40,732 nt of DNA, taken from a virus. Lineage: Duplodnaviria; Heunggongvirae; Uroviricota; Caudoviricetes. This document shows positions 1,320-40,090 of this stretch, piece after piece. The stretch spans positions 1 to 40,732 of the IMG/VR virus record IMGVR_UViG_2859827302_000005; one strand, written 5' to 3'. How positions within the stretch are numbered: position 1 is the first letter of the stretch; each line of letters opens with the position of its first letter. The notes beneath the pieces are model-generated. The model was not told where the DNA came from. It did no database searches and was given only the letters and a program-made list of their open reading frames with translations. The translations under genes were made by a program, and so were the position numbers.

Positions 1320-1500
1320 CATAATCCCAATGATTACTCCCTGACAGGGTTCGTAGGCCACTCAATATCAGGTGCAGTTGATGTATCAACACGGTTCAGC
1401 AACACCCGATACTTTTTCCAGGCTTCCAGCAATGAGGTTTCTTCCTCCGTTGCAATTTCCAGATCTGCAGCATCCTGAAGCGGCGCAATATGCTCACTGG
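1285..1500. repeat. direct repeat copy B (3' end of intact tfa plus downstream hairpin)
   Basis: Homologous to 236..450; together the two copies flank the methyltransferase gene. Confidence 0.6.
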
Positions 1501-1918
1501 CTACCTGCATCAGGTTGTTTTTTGTTTCTTCCGCCTCCCGGATCCGGAACATTTTTTCTGCTTCCGTACCCTTCACCCAGGCTGTGCCGTTCCACTTCTG
1601 AAACTCCCCTTCCGGCGATAACCAGGTAACATTTTCCGGTAACGGACCGAGTTCAGAAATAAATAACTCGTCCCCTGACGCTACGTCATAAACCGTTTTA
1701 CCCCGATGGTCTTCAACGAGATGCCACGATGCCTCATCACTGTTGAAAACAGCCACAAAGCCAGCAGGAATATCTGGTGGTGCAATATCGGTACTGTTTG
1801 CTGGCAGACCTGTATGAGGCGGAATATATGCGTCACCTTCACCAATAAATTCATTAGTTCCGGCCAGCAGATTATAAATTTTTATGGTCCGTGCTTGTTC
1901 ACTCATTCTGAATGCCAT
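1334..1918 (-). CDS. tfa: tail fiber assembly protein Tfa (lambda orf-194 type)
   Basis: 194 aa, near-identical to lambda Tfa as I recall it (MAFRMSEQ...[12 protein letters not shown]). Its ATG overlaps the stf stop codon. Confidence 0.9.
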
Positions 1919-27507: not shown

Positions 27508-27618
27508 ACCCCGTCTCCCGTTATCCGGAAGCTGACAACAATAAAAAAAGCCACCAGTTAAGTACTGATGGCTCTGATAACTCATGCAGGCCTCTCAGAC
27601 GACCCACTGGATTTGCCC

Positions 27619-28524
27619 CTATATTTCCAGACATCTGTTATCACTTAACCCATTACAAGCCCGCTGCCGCAGATATTCCCGTGGCGAGCGATAACCCAGC
27701 GCACTATGCGGATGCCATTCGTTATAATGCTCGAACGCCTCTGCAAGGTTCTTTGCTGCCGTTAACCCGTCTGGTTTGGGCATGATACTGATGTAGTCAC
27801 GCTTTATCGTTTGCACGAAGCTCTCTGCTATTCCGTTACTCTCCGGACTCCGCACCGCCGTGTTCTTCGGTTCAAGTCCCAACATCCGGGCGAACTGGCG
27901 TGTTTCATTAGCCCGGTAGCATGAACCATTATCCGTCAGCCACTCCACTGGAGACGACGGAAGATCGTTGCCGAAGCGGCGTTCCACCGCTCCCAGCATG
28001 ACGTCCTGTACTGTTTCACTGTTGAAGCCGCCGGTAGTCACCGCCCAGTGCAGTGCCTCACGATCACAGCAGTCCAGCGCGAACGTGACACGCAGTCTCT
28101 CTCCGTTATCACAGCAGAACTCGAACCCGTCAGAGCACCATCGCTGATTGCTTTCTTTCACGGCCACTCTGCCTGTATGTGCCCGTTTCGATGGTGGTAC
28201 AGCAGGTTTTCGCTCAAGCAACAGCGCATTCTGGCGCATGATCCGGTAAACACGTTTGGCATTGATCGCAGGCATACCATCAAGTTCTGCCTGTCTGCGA
28301 AGCAGCGCCCATACCCGACGATAACCATACGTGGGCAGCTCTCCGATAACATGGTGTATACGGAGAAGCACATCCGTATCATCAGTGTGACGACTGCGGC
28401 GGCCATCCATCCAGTCATCGGTTCGTCTGAGAATGACGTGCAACTGCGCACGCGACACCCGGAGACAACGGCTGACTAAGCTTACTCCCCATCCCCGGGC
28501 AATAAGGGCGCGTGCGCTATCCAC
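27619..28524 (-). CDS. insD: IS2 transposase OrfB (InsD)
   Basis: 301-aa ORF with DDE integrase-like sequence; in IS2 it is expressed as a frameshift fusion with InsC. Confidence 0.9.
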
Positions 28525-28847
28525 TTTTTTGCCCGTCCATATTCAACGGCTTCTTTGAGGAGTTCATTTTCCATCGTTTTCTTGCCGAGCAGGCGCTGGA
28601 GTTCTTTAATCTGCTTCATGGCGGCAGCAAGTTCAGAGGCAGGAACAACCTGTTCTCCGGCGGCCACAGCAGTAAGACTTCCTTCCTGGTATTGCTTACG
28701 CCAGAGAAATAACTGGCTGGCTGCTACACCATGTTGCCGGGCAACGAGGGAGACCGTCATCCCCGGTTCAAAGCTCTGCTGAACAATTGCGATCTTTTCC
28801 TGTGTGGTACGCCGTCTGCGTTTCTCCGGCCCTAAGACATCAATCAT
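28482..28847 (-). CDS. insC: IS2 OrfA (InsC)
   Basis: 121 aa, [41 protein letters not shown]…, helix-turn-helix. Confidence 0.9.
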
Positions 28848-28993
28848 CTGTACTCCAATGACTAGTCTAAAAACTAGTATTAAGACTATCACTTATTTAA
28901 GTGATACTGGTTGTCTGGAGATTCAGGGGGCCAGTCTACCCACTGACACTACCGGTGAGTTTAACGATACCTTCCATTTGACTGGCTCACTTT

Positions 28994-30850
28994 TTATGAT
29001 GATGCCGGTGCATTTATCTCCAGCACCAGACTTTCTATCTCAACGCCATACGCTGCATTTTTGGTAATATCCGTCAGCGTCAGCGCATTCAGCCCCAGTG
29101 TCAGACTGTCTTTTATGACCTGGAATGCCGGGCCAGCCACTCCATTCAGTTTCGGAGTAACCGTGGCACTGCCGGCGGTGAACACCAGCTCCAGCGTCTG
29201 CCAGTCGTTACTGTAATTCCCGAACTCGCCCAACTTTGTGTTTCCGGCTTTCTTGTGATGCATCAGATTCAGTTTGCCGTCTGTGGTCTGGGTGAAGAAC
29301 GACATCAGGAACGGGTTACCAGTCCCGGTCATCGCCACGACGTCAGGTAACGCTACATCGGTATACAGATAAATTCCCAGACCGAACTGGTTGTTGGTCA
29401 GTGCGCCTGACAGTCGAAACTTACAGCTCAGTCTGCCACCCCGTGTCAGCAGGGAGACTGCGTCATCCACCGGATGCATCAGGGACCAGGTTTTATTGCT
29501 CTGCTTGGTAACCTTAAACACACCATCTTCCAGCGCAACACTGCCGCCGGTGATGGTCCAGCCCTGCGCAGCAGCCTCTCCGGCTGTCGGCAGCAGGGAG
29601 ACTGTACGAACGGATGTGTCACCATCAGACGGCCCCGATGGCGTGTCGCCGCCGGGCGAGGGTTTAATCTCCGGTGCGGTACCGCTGATGAAGGCGCTGG
29701 TTCGACCAACTGCGTTCAGAATAGCGGTTGCCAGGCGATCCGAAATAATGCCCCTGCGCGCCCATGAACTGAAATGTGTCGGACGATTTGACGATACCCA
29801 ATTACCATTACTACGGGATTGCGCGCCGTAATAACCTGCATCAGCAATATCCGGGTCTTCTGCCGGTAAGTTGGTGGGCGTGTTGTTGCCGTTACCGTCG
29901 GTCATGAACGGCACAAAGAAAACGTTGTCGCTCTCCCTGTTTTTGTACGCGCCGTAGACGGAGTCATACTGTGTGCCGTATGTGTTTTTCCAGTAATACG
30001 TCGTGTCGCCACAAATCCACGGTACAACTGCAGCACTGCCGCCATGGCACTGCGCGTTAAATCCGGAAAGGTCAGTACGGAACTGCTTCAGCATGGCCGT
30101 GAACAGGTCCGGTTGCTGTGCGTAGGTGGCAGCGCTCATGTCAAATTCGCCCTGCATCCAGCACACCGCCAGCAACACATTTTTCGGGTTCTTCTGTAAT
30201 GCCGCTTTGGTGCGTGCGATCAGGTCCTGATATAACGGTTTACCCACACCCCAGCGTGCCGAATCCTGGCTGGCCCCCGTGTCCGCACTGAATGTCCCCT
30301 CCGCGCCCTGGGTGAATGCCGAACCACCACGACAGCATGGTACCAGCAGGATCCCCGCGTTATTCGGGATATACGGAAGCAGTTTTTTGGCAATATGTAA
30401 GCCCTGGCCGACACAGCCGTACTGCCCTTTGCTCAGGTCTGCCTTCGGATGATTCAGTGCGCTCATATCCTGAACATCATGCAGGCAGTGGTCTGCCGGA
30501 ATGATGTCGTTAAATGCGCATGCTTTACCACCGGGAGTCACTGTGTTGCGACGGGCCAGTTGCTTAATACGTGGGTGGGGCGCATCGTAAGAATCCGGAA
30601 GCGGAAGCCCTTCACCGTAAGCCATGGCATTGGATTGCCCGGCCAGTACGATGACGTAGTACCACTCCGGCTCAGTTGCACCACTGACGACCACATCACC
30701 TTCTGCTGCAATCGCCTGCATCAGGGTATAAGGGGTTATGGCCACCGGACTACCAAACGGCTGCCAGCCCTCTTTCAGTTTATGTGTCAGCTTTTCCGCA
30801 AGATCTGACGGCGACGCCGCCCTGACAACATCATAGTGTTTAAATGCCAT
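28994..30850 (-). CDS. nanS: prophage sialate O-acetylesterase, NanS-p-like (SGNH hydrolase plus C-terminal domain)
   Basis: 618 aa from the ATG at 30850 (alternative ATG at 30865; the ORF-track start is a TTG inside IS1). SGNH motif VIVLAGQSNAMAYGE. Sits between the tRNA/stx slot and the holin, as nanS-p does in Stx phages. Confidence 0.7.
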   Translation of the reverse strand: MAFKHYDVVRAASPSDLAEKLTHKLKEGWQPFGSPVAITPYTLMQAIAAEGDVVVSGATEPEWYYVIVLAGQSNAMAYGEGLPLPDSYDAPHPRIKQLARRNTVTPGGKACAFNDIIPADHCLHDVQDMSALNHPKADLSKGQYGCVGQGLHIAKKLLPYIPNNAGILLVPCCRGGSAFTQGAEGTFSADTGASQDSARWGVGKPLYQDLIARTKAALQKNPKNVLLAVCWMQGEFDMSAATYAQQPDLFTAMLKQFRTDLSGFNAQCHGGSAAVVPWICGDTTYYWKNTYGTQYDSVYGAYKNRESDNVFFVPFMTDGNGNNTPTNLPAEDPDIADAGYYGAQSRSNGNWVSSNRPTHFSSWARRGIISDRLATAILNAVGRTSAFISGTAPEIKPSPGGDTPSGPSDGDTSVRTVSLLPTAGEAAAQGWTITGGSVALEDGVFKVTKQSNKTWSLMHPVDDAVSLLTRGGRLSCKFRLSGALTNNQFGLGIYLYTDVALPDVVAMTGTGNPFLMSFFTQTTDGKLNLMHHKKAGNTKLGEFGNYSNDWQTLELVFTAGSATVTPKLNGVAGPAFQVIKDSLTLGLNALTLTDITKNAAYGVEIESLVLEINAPASS

Positions 30851-30930
30851 GGTTCTTTCCACCATCTGAAAAATGGGTGATGCTGCCAACTTACTGATTT
30901 AGTGTATGATGGTGTTTTTGAGGTGCTCCA

Positions 30931-31206
30931 GTGGCTTCTGTTTCTATCAGCTGTCCCTCCTGTTCAGCTACTGACGGGGTGGTGCGTAACGGCAAAAGCA
31001 CTGCCGGACATCAGCGCTATCTCTGCTCTCACTGCCGTAAAACATGGCAACTGCAGTTCACTTACACCGCTTCTCAACCCGGTACGCACCAGAAAATTAT
31101 TGATATGGCCATGAATGGCGTTGGATGCCGGGCAACTGCACGCATTATGGGCGTTAGCCTCAACACGATTTTACGTCACTTAAAAAACTCAGGCCGCAGT
31201 CGGTAA
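30931..31206 (+). CDS. insA: IS1 InsA
   Basis: 91 aa, [43 protein letters not shown]…. Confidence 0.9.
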
Positions 31207-31250
31207 CCTCGCGCATACAGCCGGGCAGTGACGTCATCGTCTGCGCGGAA

Positions 31251-31628
31251 ATGGACGAACAGTGGGGATACGTCGGGGCTAAATCGCGCCAGCGCTGGCT
31301 GTTTTACGCGTATGACAGGCTCCGGAAGACGGTTGTTGCGCACGTATTCGGTGAACGCACTATGGCGACGCTGGGGCGTCTTATGAGCTTGCTGTCACCC
31401 TTTGACGTGGTGATATGGATGACGGATGGCTGGCCACTGTATGAATCCCGCCTGAAGGGAAAGCTGCACGTAATCAGCAAGCGATATACGCAGCGAATTG
31501 AGCGGCATAACCTGAATCTGAGGCAGCACCTGGCACGGCTGGGACGGAAGTCGCTGTCGTTCTCAAAATCGGTGGAGCTGCATGACAAAGTCATCGGGCA
31601 TTATCTGAACATAAAACACTATCAATAA
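31251..31628 (+). CDS. insB: IS1 InsB frame (C-terminal part of the InsAB' transposase)
   Basis: …[51 protein letters not shown]…; expressed by -1 frameshift from insA. Confidence 0.8.
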
Positions 31629-31886
31629 GTTGGAGTCATTACCTGAAAAATGATTCTTTAAAATACCTGACATGTAATACAGAAAAAAACAAAACCATAC
31701 CTTAAATAAAAACCTCATCATCAAGCAGATATGCATGGATAAACTACAAGACGAGATATAAACCACCATGCATTTAAATAAACAATAAACAACATCAGAA
31801 AAATAATTCTGCTCTATGGTTTACAATCAAAAATATCATTTATACTTTTCAGAACATCACCAGCAAGACATAAACAAGGAAACTAA

Positions 31887-32222
31887 ATGAAGTGGATTGT
31901 GATTGATACAGTTATCCAGCCATCATGCGGAATATCTTTTTCAGTCATATGGAGTAAAATAAAATTAATAATCTGGTATCAATCGGATGCTTTCTTACCT
32001 CCTGAAAGTATATTTACACTGACTCACACAGGCATCATGCTCAATAACAAAGTGCTACCTGTAACCATTTACAACGTAGTGCCATTCAATAAAACATTCT
32101 GGAATTTAATCAAAAACAGCCAGGAATGCCCTACAAATACAGATAACGTATTGAATGAATGCTTTAATAACCGTTGCACTCTGCAAATATGTCCTTATGG
32201 ACTAAAACAACAAAGTCCATAA
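31887..32222 (+). CDS. hypothetical 111-aa protein, AT-rich, Cys-rich C-terminus
   Basis: AAGGA Shine-Dalgarno 7 nt before the ATG, very AT-rich upstream region, opposite strand to the late genes. Five Cys in the last ~35 aa. No family recognised. Confidence 0.45.
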
Positions 32223-32257
32223 GGAGTTTACTCACATCTGACAAAATCAATATAAAC

Positions 32258-32455
32258 AGCCCCTCCGTAGAGGGGCTGGAGAGTGGCGCTATGTGCCATT
32301 GCATGGTGCCGGGTGCCTCCCGGTGAATTCAGTACCAGCACCTGAATCCGCGATTATCCCATATACCTACTCGCTGATTGCCCCTCCGCACAGGGGGATT
32401 CACCATGCGAAATTTTTTAACAAACTTCCCGCTGGCCAGACAATAATCGCCAGCC
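32258..32455. repeat. structured non-coding element, paralog 1 (candidate sRNA or recombination element)
   Basis: Shares ordered conserved blocks with 32721..32920: GC hairpin agcccctccgtagaggggct, gcatggtgccgggtgcctcccggtgaattcag, a hairpin attcag-N9-ctgaat, agggggattcaccatgcga, and ttttttaacaaa…gccagacaat. No conserved ORF. Confidence 0.4.
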
Positions 32456-32720
32456 TGAATTATGAGCAACGTAGCATTTTACGGGAAAACTGTTTTCTGC
32501 AGTAAAAAGGCCCGCCGGAGCGAGCCTGGAAGGATAGCGGTCATGTGATGCCGGTTTCCCGGTAACTCAGCATCGGTATCTGAGTCAACGTTTTCTCTAC
32601 TGGGTCATTTCCGATACGTTCCGCCTTCCGGCAGACTTTCATCACGTCAGAAAATATAGCACCCTGAGTAACAGGACAGTACTCAGAATTCAGGAAACTG
32701 TGACACATCCTGCACAGAAA

Positions 32721-32920
32721 AGCCCCTCCGGAGAGGGGCTGAAGTATAGCCTAATTTCTGTCTGTCGCATGGTGCCAGGTGCCTCCCGGTAAATTCAGCC
32801 TGTCTACTGAATTTGCATGTTCTCTGGATCATACACTTTGCCAGATGCCCCGCCGCTGAGGGGGATTCACCATGCGATGTAATTTTTAACAAATTCTCCG
32901 GCAGCCAGACAATCATCAAG
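32721..32920. repeat. structured non-coding element, paralog 2
   Basis: Same block order as 32258..32455. The internal hairpin keeps its stem but changes its loop (aaattcag-N8-ctgaattt). Confidence 0.4.
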
Positions 32921-33170: not shown

Positions 33171-33247
33171 TGGACCGCCATCGAGAACTCGAACCCCGCG
33201 CAACCAGCTTCGAAGGCTGGCGCTCTATCCCGATGAGCTAATGGCGG
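33171..33247 (-). tRNA. argN: tRNA-Arg (anticodon UCG), argN-like
   Basis: Manual fold: 7-bp acceptor CCGCCAT/ATGGCGG, D-stem GCTC/GAGC, anticodon stem CCAGC/GCTGG with loop CTTCGAA, T-loop TTCGAGT (T-stem with two G-U pairs), 3' CCA encoded. Confidence 0.7.
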
Positions 33248-33254
33248 TATGTGA

Positions 33255-33330
33255 TGGTGGCCCTTGCTGGATTTGAACCAGCGACCTGGCGATTATGAGT
33301 CGCTCGCTCTCACCACTGAGCTAAAGGGCC
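33255..33330 (-). tRNA. ileZ: tRNA-Ile2 (anticodon CAU, lysidine type), ileZ-like
   Basis: Minus strand GGCCCTTTAGCTCAGTGGTGAGAGCGAGCGACTCATAATCGCCAGGTCGCTGGTTCAAATCCAGCAAGGGCCACCA, close to E. coli ileX as I recall it. Confidence 0.85.
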
Positions 33331-38070: not shown

Positions 38071-38226
38071 TTACTCCTCAGGTTCGTAAGCTGTGAAGAC
38101 AGCGACCTCCGTCTGGCCGGTTCGGATTCGTACCTCGCAGAGGTCTTTCCTCGTTACCAGTGCCGTCACAATGACGGTTAAACAGATGACGATCAGGGCG
38201 ATTAGCATCGCCTTTTGCTGCTTCAT
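38071..38226 (-). CDS. hok: Hok-family type I toxin
   Basis: MKQQKAMLIALIVICLTVIVTALVTRKDLCEVRIRTGQTEVAVFTAYEPEE, 51 aa. Confidence 0.9.
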   Translation of the reverse strand: MKQQKAMLIALIVICLTVIVTALVTRKDLCEVRIRTGQTEVAVFTAYEPEE

Positions 38227-38283
38227 AGCCTGCTTCTCCTTGCCTTTCGGCACGTAAGAGGCTAACCTACGTGTGTAGAGCAT
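38071..38283 (-). CDS. mok: Mok (overlapping reading frame that drives hok translation)
   Basis: 70-aa ORF in the same frame, extending 19 codons upstream of hok. Confidence 0.6.
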   Translation of the reverse strand: MLYTRRLASYVPKGKEKQAMKQQKAMLIALIVICLTVIVTALVTRKDLCEVRIRTGQTEVAVFTAYEPEE

Positions 38284-38300
38284 AGATATGGCCTCAGATT
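38230..38300 (+). ncRNA. sok: predicted Sok antisense RNA (approximate position)
   Basis: Placed by analogy with hok/sok loci, antisense to the mok start region. Boundaries not determined from sequence. Confidence 0.3.
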
Positions 38301-38517
38301 AATGTTAAGCGTCTTGCCGGACGCGTAATGTTAACTGGGGCTTTTCTCTATCTGCCTTTTGGTGTTCATGCCTGAGACAGATAGCCTCAAGCACCCGCTG
38401 CAATTCTACTTAACTCTCCTTTTCCCGCAAACCGTTTTTATCCCCAGCGGCAAATCGAATACACCACCAGCGCCACCGCCATCGCAATTCCTACCGTTGT
38501 TAATGCTTCAGGCCAGG

Positions 38518-38754: not shown

Positions 38755-38765
38755 TGGATTTGCCC

Positions 38766-39671
38766 CTATATTTCCAGACATCTGTTATCACTTAACCCAT
38801 TACAAGCCCGCTGCCGCAGATATTCCCGTGGCGAGCGATAACCCAGCGCACTATGCGGATGCCATTCGTTATAATGCTCGAACGCCTCTGCAAGGTTCTT
38901 TGCTGCCGTTAACCCGTCTGGTTTGGGCATGATACTGATGTAGTCACGCTTTATCGTTTTCACGAAGCTCTCTGCTATTCCGTTACTCTCCGGACTCCGC
39001 ACCGCCGTGTTCTTCGGTTCAAGTCCCAACATCCGGGCGAACTGGCGTGTTTCATTAGCCCGGTAGCATGAACCATTATCCGTCAGCCACTCCACTGGAG
39101 ACGACGGAAGATCGTTGCCGAAGCGGCGTTCCACCGCTCCCAGCATGACGTCCTGTACTGTTTCACTGTTGAAGCCGCCGGTAGTCACCGCCCAGTGCAG
39201 TGCCTCACGATCACAGCAGTCCAGCGCGAACGTGACACGCAGTCTCTCTCCGTTATCACAGCAGAACTCGAACCCGTCAGAGCACCATCGCTGATTGCTT
39301 TCTTTCACGGCCACTCTGCCTGTATGTGCCCGTTTCGATGGCGGTACAGCAGGCTTTCGCTCAAGCAACAGCGCATTCTGGCGCATGATCCGGTAAACAC
39401 GTTTGGCATTGATCGCAGGCATACCATCAAGTTCTGCCTGTCTGCGAAGCAGCGCCCATACCCGACGATAACCATACGTGGGCAGCTCTCCGATAACATG
39501 GTGTATACGGAGAAGCACATCCGTATCATCAGTGTGACGACTGCGGCGGCCATCCATCCAGTCATCGGTTCGTCTGAGAATGACGTGCAACTGCGCACGC
39601 GACACCCGGAGACAACGGCTGACTAAGCTTACTCCCCATCCCCGGGCAATAAGGGCGCGTGCGCTATCCAC
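38766..39671 (-). CDS. insD: IS2 transposase OrfB (InsD)
   Basis: 301 aa; one amino-acid difference from copy 1 (K vs Q). Confidence 0.9.
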
Positions 39672-39994
39672 TTTTTTGCCCGTCCATATTCAACGGCTTC
39701 TTTGAGGAGTTCATTTTCCATCGTTTTCTTGCCGAGCAGGCGCTGGAGTTCTTTAATCTGCTTCATGGCGGCAGCAAGTTCAGAGGCAGGAACAACCTGT
39801 TCTCCGGCGGCCACAGCAGTAAGACTTCCTTCCTGGTATTGCTTACGCCAGAGAAATAACTGGCTGGCTGCTACACCATGTTGCCGGGCAACGAGGGAGA
39901 CCGTCATCCCCGGTTCAAAGCTCTGCTGAACAATTGCGATCTTTTCCTGTGTGGTACGCCGTCTGCGTTTCTCCGGCCCTAAGACATCAATCAT
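39629..39994 (-). CDS. insC: IS2 OrfA (InsC)
   Basis: 121 aa, identical to copy 1. Confidence 0.9.
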
Positions 39995-40090
39995 CTGTAC
40001 TCCAATGACTAGTCTAAAAACTAGTATTAAGACTATCACTTATTTAAGTGATACTGGTTGTCTGGAGATTCAGGGGGCCAGTCTAATCTT

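Follow-up and report, generated by a model that had tools for sequence, protein, structure and literature searches.

What is encoded by the AT-rich, plus-strand open reading frame (ORF) that lies between a tRNA pair and the esterase gene nanS-p in a lambdoid prophage, close to where Shiga-toxin phages carry stxAB? The ORF is found in a window of 40,732 nucleotides, the whole stretch of DNA analysed (IMG/VR record IMGVR_UViG_2859827302_000005; Caudoviricetes; Table 1). It is flanked on one side by genes for tRNA-Arg and tRNA-Met(CAT) (33171-33330, minus strand) and on the other by nanS-p (28994..30850, minus strand), the product of which is a 618-aa esterase with DUF1737, SASA and DUF6645 domains. 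A preliminary description of this DNA, made from the sequence alone, took the ORF for a candidate new moron occupying the stx cargo slot.

Table 1. Positions of iraL and the adjoining features in the window.
Feature	Position	Strand	Basis and remarks
IS1, complete, 768 bp	30876..31643	+	InsA/InsB family matches; uninterrupted sequence in DA33133 for comparison
AT-rich iraL cassette	31644..32256	+	31.8% GC; spans from the IS1 end to the downstream hairpin
iraL promoter region, -100 to -1	31754..31853	+	Homology to the CFT073 -100..+33 fragment
iraL 5' UTR, 33 nt	31854..31886	+	Start 31854 mapped by homology to the CFT073 5'-RACE start
iraL ribosome-binding site, AAGGA	31876..31880	+	6 nt before the ATG; read from the sequence; part of the 5' UTR as published
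iraL coding sequence, 111 aa and stop	31887..32222	+	ORF list and identity to CFT073; RssB anti-adaptor, IraM/IraL family
STnc100-family sRNA, match 1	32248..32436	-	Rfam, 131.7 bits (gathering score 47); convergent with iraL
G+C-rich hairpin	32257..32278	.	34 nt past the iraL stop; terminator-like site on the minus strand
STnc100-family sRNA, match 2	32712..32905	-	Rfam, 140.5 bits (gathering score 47)

In the ORF list of the window, the ORF runs from ATG to TAA, and its length, strand, AAGGA ribosome-binding site and AT-rich upstream region are all as first described. The GC content is 34.8% in the ORF and 28.0% in the 243 bases upstream (31644-31886), against 53.1% in the whole window. The cassette shows 97-99% identity with its counterparts in CFT073, DA33133 and phage vB_EcoS-640R1, and a megablast search of complete E. 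coli genomes with positions 31630-32560 gives matches of 97-99% identity in more than 1400 genomes. When the ORF alone is used at a threshold of at least 95% identity, about 1415 records are recovered from 5426 complete E. coli genomes (about a quarter); at about 70% nucleotide identity, the same search also recovers K-12-type iraM. On these sequence comparisons the ORF is a conserved gene, and a chance ORF is excluded. Readings of 31887..32222 as a chance ORF or as an IS fragment are both rejected, as the gene is conserved and matches a family model. The preliminary description had itself named two outcomes that would speak against it, namely lack of conservation and a match to an IS or phage housekeeping fragment; neither was found, indicating that the gene is real.

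The identity of the gene is given by its protein product, all 111 residues of which are identical to CFT073 WP_000871291.1 (c1429). In the CFT073 potB prophage (NC_004431.1), the gene for this protein, also of 111 aa, occupies positions 1343465-1343800; a tRNA/DUF3927 block lies on one side of it and a DUF1737/holin block on the other, and it is on the strand opposite to them. At the nucleotide level, 335 of the 336 positions of the coding sequence (99.7%) are the same, and the single difference is synonymous; the whole coding region thus has at least 95% identity to CFT073 iraL, and there is no overlap with iraM matches. The CFT073 potB-island gene was named iraL, formerly ycgW (Hryckowian et al., 2014, mBio; PMC4045071), and bears the locus tag c1429 (PMC12890032). 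The ORF is therefore almost certainly iraL, encoding a prophage-borne RssB anti-adaptor which, expressed from its own promoter, would stabilise RpoS during growth of the lysogen. Given the 100% identity of its product to IraL, a protein already studied by experiment, the gene is not a new moron: iraL is already known, and its naming, mapping and functional characterisation date back to 2014. The other half of the original proposal stands: as an AT-rich gene with a promoter of its own, oriented opposite to the late operon and located in the accessory zone between Q/tRNA and nanS-p, iraL is an accessory gene of the moron type.

The profile and structure searches suggested at the outset place the protein in the IraM/IraL/RssC family of anti-adaptors. 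IraL scores 162 bits against the NCBIfam model NF007393 (IraM; cut-off 121), with residues 1-110 aligned to profile positions 1-113 of 114, and matches phrog_4407 in PHROGs (E 3e-73). In a search of PDB sequences it matches the IraM chain 8twd_A (E 9e-32) with about 65% identity over residues 1-78. In every match listed by the megablast search of complete E. coli genomes, the RefSeq label of the ORF is 'anti-adapter protein IraM'. The overall amino-acid identity between IraL and K-12 IraM is 61.7% in our alignment and 58.9% in the published comparison (PMC4045071). A local Pfam-A scan gave zero matches at E<=10 for IraL, K-12 IraM and other IraM-family paralogues; this contradicts a precomputed protein-collection table, which lists PF11183 (PmrD) for nearly all IraM-family proteins. 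The conflict appears to be a difference between libraries and does not count against family membership.

The function of IraL has been established on the identical protein in other strains. In a CFT073 library, IraL was identified through its enhancement of a sigma-S-dependent reporter, and it binds RssB and stabilises RpoS in log-phase growth (PMC4045071). [quoted passage not shown] Expression of iraL rises in a CFT073 fur mutant, as seen in later work, and on a shift to 37 C (PMC12890032), and the gene has been associated with uropathogenic as well as Shigella lineages. By extension, the product of the window gene would be a cytoplasmic protein of about 12 kDa which binds the response-regulator-like adaptor RssB, such that RssB could not hand sigma-S (RpoS) to ClpXP. 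Sigma-S would then last longer, and the general stress response would be elevated in exponential phase. What is observed in the window itself is the identity, family, fold and prophage position of this protein and its gene, together with an intact promoter and ORF.

The structural basis for such an activity is known for IraM. In the crystal structure of the IraM(1-78)–RssB complex (PDB 8TWD), IraM forms a PmrD-like beta-barrel (Brugger et al., 2023; PMC10844676), occluding the alpha4-beta5-alpha5 face of the RssB receiver and remodelling the interdomain linker, whereby sigma-S is excluded (PMC10844676). For IraL, an AlphaFold model built on a 16-sequence alignment had a pLDDT of 35.8 and was replaced by one built on a 50-sequence alignment from the representative search, for which pLDDT is 83.7 overall and about 87-96 in the core, with a helix at residues 69-77. 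This predicted structure superposes on 8twd_A with a TM score of 0.90 and an rmsd of 1.2 A. Residues 1-78 are predicted to adopt the family fold, an antiparallel beta-barrel of the PmrD type flanked by a hairpin, together with one helix. The IraM residues in contact with RssB are largely conserved in IraL. All five residues of cluster I, which contacts the RssB N-terminal domain, are identical. In the two clusters which contact the RssB C-terminal domain and linker, three of five are identical in cluster II, the others being the conservative changes T13S and L75I, and two of four are identical in cluster III, the others being H63N and I64V. In two-hybrid assays, IraL binds only the RssB N-terminal domain and IraM binds both RssB domains (PMC4045071); the four substitutions would fit N-terminal-domain-only binding by IraL.

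The same fold raises the question of whether IraL might be a PmrD-like connector, protecting not RssB but a different response regulator, such as PmrA. The IraL model has a TM score of 0.73 to PmrD 4hn7 (PmrD structures range from 0.71 to 0.73), and the IraM-family profile reaches PmrD chains weakly, with E values of 0.019 (residues 1-76) and 0.43. On the other hand, identity to PmrD is 14-20%, the five RssB N-terminal-domain contacts are all retained, and the identical protein has been shown to bind RssB and stabilise sigma-S, making this role highly improbable. A reading as a PmrD orthologue is likewise rejected on the identity and the profile E values. IraL resembles PmrD in fold only; sequence comparison does not place it in the PmrD family (PF11183).

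Expression of iraL from its own promoter is indicated by comparison with CFT073. [quoted passage not shown] The leader of 33 nt that results agrees with the '-100 to +33' construct of the same study, whose promoter fragment gave functional iraL expression in K-12 and in complementation; in K-12, log-phase sigma-S was raised by a fragment extending from -100 through the whole of iraL (PMC4045071). The -100..+33 fragment of the window is identical to that of CFT073 at 128 of 133 positions, the five substitutions including those at -1 and -28, and the mapped start is conserved. Natural iraL promoters are at least 96% identical to that of CFT073 (PMC4045071), and the window copy, at 96.2%, is inside that range. 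TATACT is present at 31841-31846, 7 nt before the start, and the candidate -35 element would be either TTTACA at 31820-31825 (15-nt spacer) or GGTTTA at 31818-31823 (17-nt spacer). Because of its 15-nt spacer, the TATACT/TTTACA pair was missed by a consensus promoter scan, and the position of the start site rests on the published RACE sequence instead. The gene would thus be transcribed from a sigma-70-type promoter of its own, opposite to the phage late operon, and for this reason could be expressed in a growing lysogen.

The GGTTTA sequence overlapping the -35 region resembles half a PhoP box. This, together with common family membership and the 61.7% identity to K-12 IraM, could be taken to mean that the window protein behaves like IraM, being induced by PhoP/PhoQ on Mg2+ starvation and binding mainly the RssB C-terminal domain. 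But the half-site is single, without a second repeat at 5-nt spacing, and the protein is identical to IraL, not to IraM. IraL and IraM sequences form separate groups without overlap (PMC4045071), and K-12-type iraM, with about 70% nucleotide identity, is located at a different locus beside e14. An IraM-type behaviour is accordingly quite improbable, and the IraL-type assignment is retained.

Upstream of the promoter, the preliminary description did not mention a copy of IS1, which separates the AT-rich upstream region of iraL from nanS-p. The element is flanked by a 9-bp target duplication, TGAAAAATG (30867-30875 and 31644-31652); it ends 211 nt before the iraL start site on one side and lies 25 nt upstream of the nanS-p ATG (30850, minus strand) on the other. 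The exact IS1/iraL junction was not found in one piece in any of the complete E. coli genomes searched. As IS1 is located between the late promoter side and the nanS-p, lysis and structural genes, it may be polar on late transcription. It might also be supposed that IS1 and prophage decay have cut the normal control of iraL, leaving a gene that is silent or misregulated and makes no functional contribution. Upstream elements could have been lost, or read-through from IS1, which has the same direction, could alter regulation; the presence of IS2 at two further sites (from 27608 and from 38755) and the five substitutions in the promoter fragment point the same way. However, the coding sequence is intact with its one synonymous change, and the fragment sufficient for expression lies wholly on the iraL side of IS1 and within the natural range of promoter identity. 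Loss of function is thus considered unlikely, and, judging from the sequence, the window copy of iraL would be expressed and active in its own strain despite IS1.

The two IS2 copies (about 27608..28938 and 38755..40085, minus strand; TnpA/TnpB matches) are near-identical and in the same orientation, 11,147 bp apart. They bracket nanS-p, IS1, iraL, the sRNAs, the tRNAs, a methylase gene, Q and rusA, up to hok/sok. Recombination between them could delete the bracketed segment, or the segment could move as a composite unit. Given three IS elements, the prophage is probably defective. Other RNA genes were also seen in the window: a sok antitoxin RNA (38221..38396, minus strand; Rfam, 117 bits) adjoins the hok-like region, and an IS009 sRNA (1377..1575, minus strand; Rfam, 221 bits) is located in the tail-fibre region. 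The tRNA at 33255..33330 (minus strand) is called Met(CAT) by ARAGORN, and its homologue is labelled tRNA-Ile in RefSeq (DA33133, CFT073 and O157 prophages), the latter label corresponding to a lysidine-modified ileX-type tRNA.

Downstream, iraL converges with the first of two STnc100-family sRNA matches; STnc100 has been related to PasD sRNAs (2026 preprint). The hairpin at 32257..32278 consists of 9 pairs and a T tail on the minus strand, with an RNA fold z-score of -3.95. The convergent STnc100-family sRNA has its terminator stem here, and the hairpin is possibly a shared two-way terminator which would also end iraL transcripts. A 70-aa ORF on the plus strand (32293..32505) is wholly antisense to the STnc100 match and has no family match. 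The annotation of this ORF is 'hypothetical protein' in vB_EcoS-640R1, whereas RefSeq treats it as a fragment of a pseudogene, and it is probably not a gene.

The relationship of iraL to the stx position differs from that first proposed. In agreement with the preliminary description of a missing toxin operon, the ORF list of the window has no stx-sized ORF between the tRNAs and nanS-p. In an O157:H7 Stx2c prophage, Q is followed by three tRNAs, by stx2A and stx2B, and then by an IraM-family gene that is on the opposite strand and precedes the esterase gene; the product of this IraM-family gene is 75% identical to IraL. In a tblastn search of phage records, IraM-family genes were found in 46, and 32 of these are named Stx2-, Stx2a- or Stx2c-converting. 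A segment of about 190 bp just past the iraL stop, which Rfam identifies as the STnc100-family sRNA on the minus strand, is common to hundreds of Stx phages; in an Stx2a phage it directly follows stxB, as it likewise does in Stx2c, and the window copy aligns with these post-stxB segments. As stxAB is located between the tRNAs and the STnc100-like segment, and the IraM-family gene lies beyond this segment and coexists with stx, the anti-adaptor gene forms a separate cassette neighbouring stx. iraL is therefore located beside the stx slot, not in it, and Stx2/Stx2c phages carry both stxAB and an IraM-family paralogue.

This arrangement also bears on the implication that the ORF might be a new secreted or membrane-bound Cys-rich virulence factor in place of Shiga toxin. 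A position in the lambdoid accessory zone, a foreign base composition and a Cys-rich tail would accord with such a factor, but the paralogues coexist with stx2 in the same phages. The checks proposed for a signal peptide or transmembrane segment found neither kind in IraL, the highest 19-residue hydropathy being 1.44, and the protein has the cytoplasmic beta-barrel fold of IraM and a known cytoplasmic partner. The probability of this reading is close to negligible; for a secreted toxin, it is in practice refuted by the 100% identity to IraL. That the anti-adaptor cassette and stx are neighbours able to coexist, not alternatives, goes beyond the available literature. Directly adjacent to the stx position, lambdoid prophages have a gene by which the general stress response of the host is regulated. 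A literature search found no functional study of the IraM-family paralogue of Stx2 phages, which could link carriage of Stx prophages to RpoS control.

The Cys-rich character first attributed to the ORF leads to the C-terminal tail. The cysteines of IraL are at positions 14, 81, 92, 97 and 102. Five had been described as clustered near the C-terminus; four are indeed in the tail, and the peptide quoted then itself has only four, but the fifth, C14, is N-terminal. A profile search of 1.84 billion representatives recovered 93 relatives of IraL, 48 of them at E<=1e-10, and all the named relatives are called IraM (Citrobacter, Salmonella, Enterobacter, Cronobacter, Kosakonia, Intestinirhabdus and Dryocola). 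Conservation was assessed in 45 sequences from Escherichia, Citrobacter, Salmonella, Enterobacter, Cronobacter, Kosakonia and other genera: IraL and K-12-type IraM were aligned with 43 full-length proteins, each representing a cluster at 50% identity. In this alignment, C81, C97 and W72 are present in all 45 sequences and C92, C102 and P103 in 44, these being the most conserved positions; C14 is a cysteine in only three. The tail motif of the IraM/IraL family is C-P-x-N-x8-C-x4-C-x4-C-P-[YF]-G, and IraL contains its C-x10-C-x4-C-x4-C-P-[YF]-G element with C81, C92, C97 and C102.

This conserved tail is absent from the IraM crystal construct, and was called less conserved and flexible; full-length IraM was unstable, insoluble and proteolysed, and the tail was thus removed for crystallisation (PMC10844676). 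In the IraL model the tail has pLDDT values of 51-71, and the tail peptide alone gives chance-level matches to PDB sequences (E>0.5). No published function for the C-terminal tail of IraM or IraL was found in a literature search. Because the tail cysteines are among the most conserved residues, and insolubility and proteolysis would be expected of an unmetallated or oxidised Cys4 site, we tentatively suggest that residues 79-111 might constitute a Cys4 metal-binding (probably zinc) or redox-sensing module which governs the stability or activity of IraL/IraM, instead of being a mere appendage. If so, zinc or oxidative status could directly affect anti-adaptor activity and, through it, the amount of RpoS. 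The conservation itself goes beyond the available literature, as the tail is the best-conserved part of the family and is missing from the only crystal structure.

Among known systems, the closest to the window is the potB iraL of CFT073, which shares the protein, the start site, and the position and orientation in a lambdoid prophage. The gene order Q, tRNAs, DUF3927, sRNA, iraL (opposite strand), esterase/DUF1737 and holin is the same in CFT073, DA33133 and vB_EcoS-640R1. The two loci differ in that the window has a DNA methylase gene after Q and a full-length nanS-p, whereas an IS200 and a truncated form of the DUF1737 gene are found in CFT073; CFT073 also lacks the IS1 present 211 nt upstream of the start in the window, and five substitutions separate the promoter regions.

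K-12 IraM (ElbA/YcgW) shares with IraL the family NF007393, the PmrD-like barrel and the invariant C-x10-C-x4-C-x4-C tail. In contrast to prophage-borne iraL, K-12 iraM is located next to e14, beside ycgX/bluR; IraL is 4 residues longer, and the reported regulation also differs, IraM being PhoP-induced on Mg2+ starvation and IraL acting in log phase. PmrD (4HN7, 2JSO and 2RQX), which protects phospho-PmrA, is like IraL in having an unusual beta-barrel and in binding a receiver domain, but it has no Cys4 tail and its partner is PmrA, not RssB, in addition to the 14-20% identity. The paralogue of Stx2/Stx2c phages (WP_001303568.1 in O157:H7; phages 2851 and 1717) is of the same family as IraL, with 72-75% identity, and its gene has the same orientation, lies immediately before the esterase gene and is convergent with an STnc100-like sRNA. 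These phages differ from the window in carrying stx2AB between the tRNAs and the sRNA/anti-adaptor cassette, and the paralogue has 107 aa, compared with 111 in IraL.
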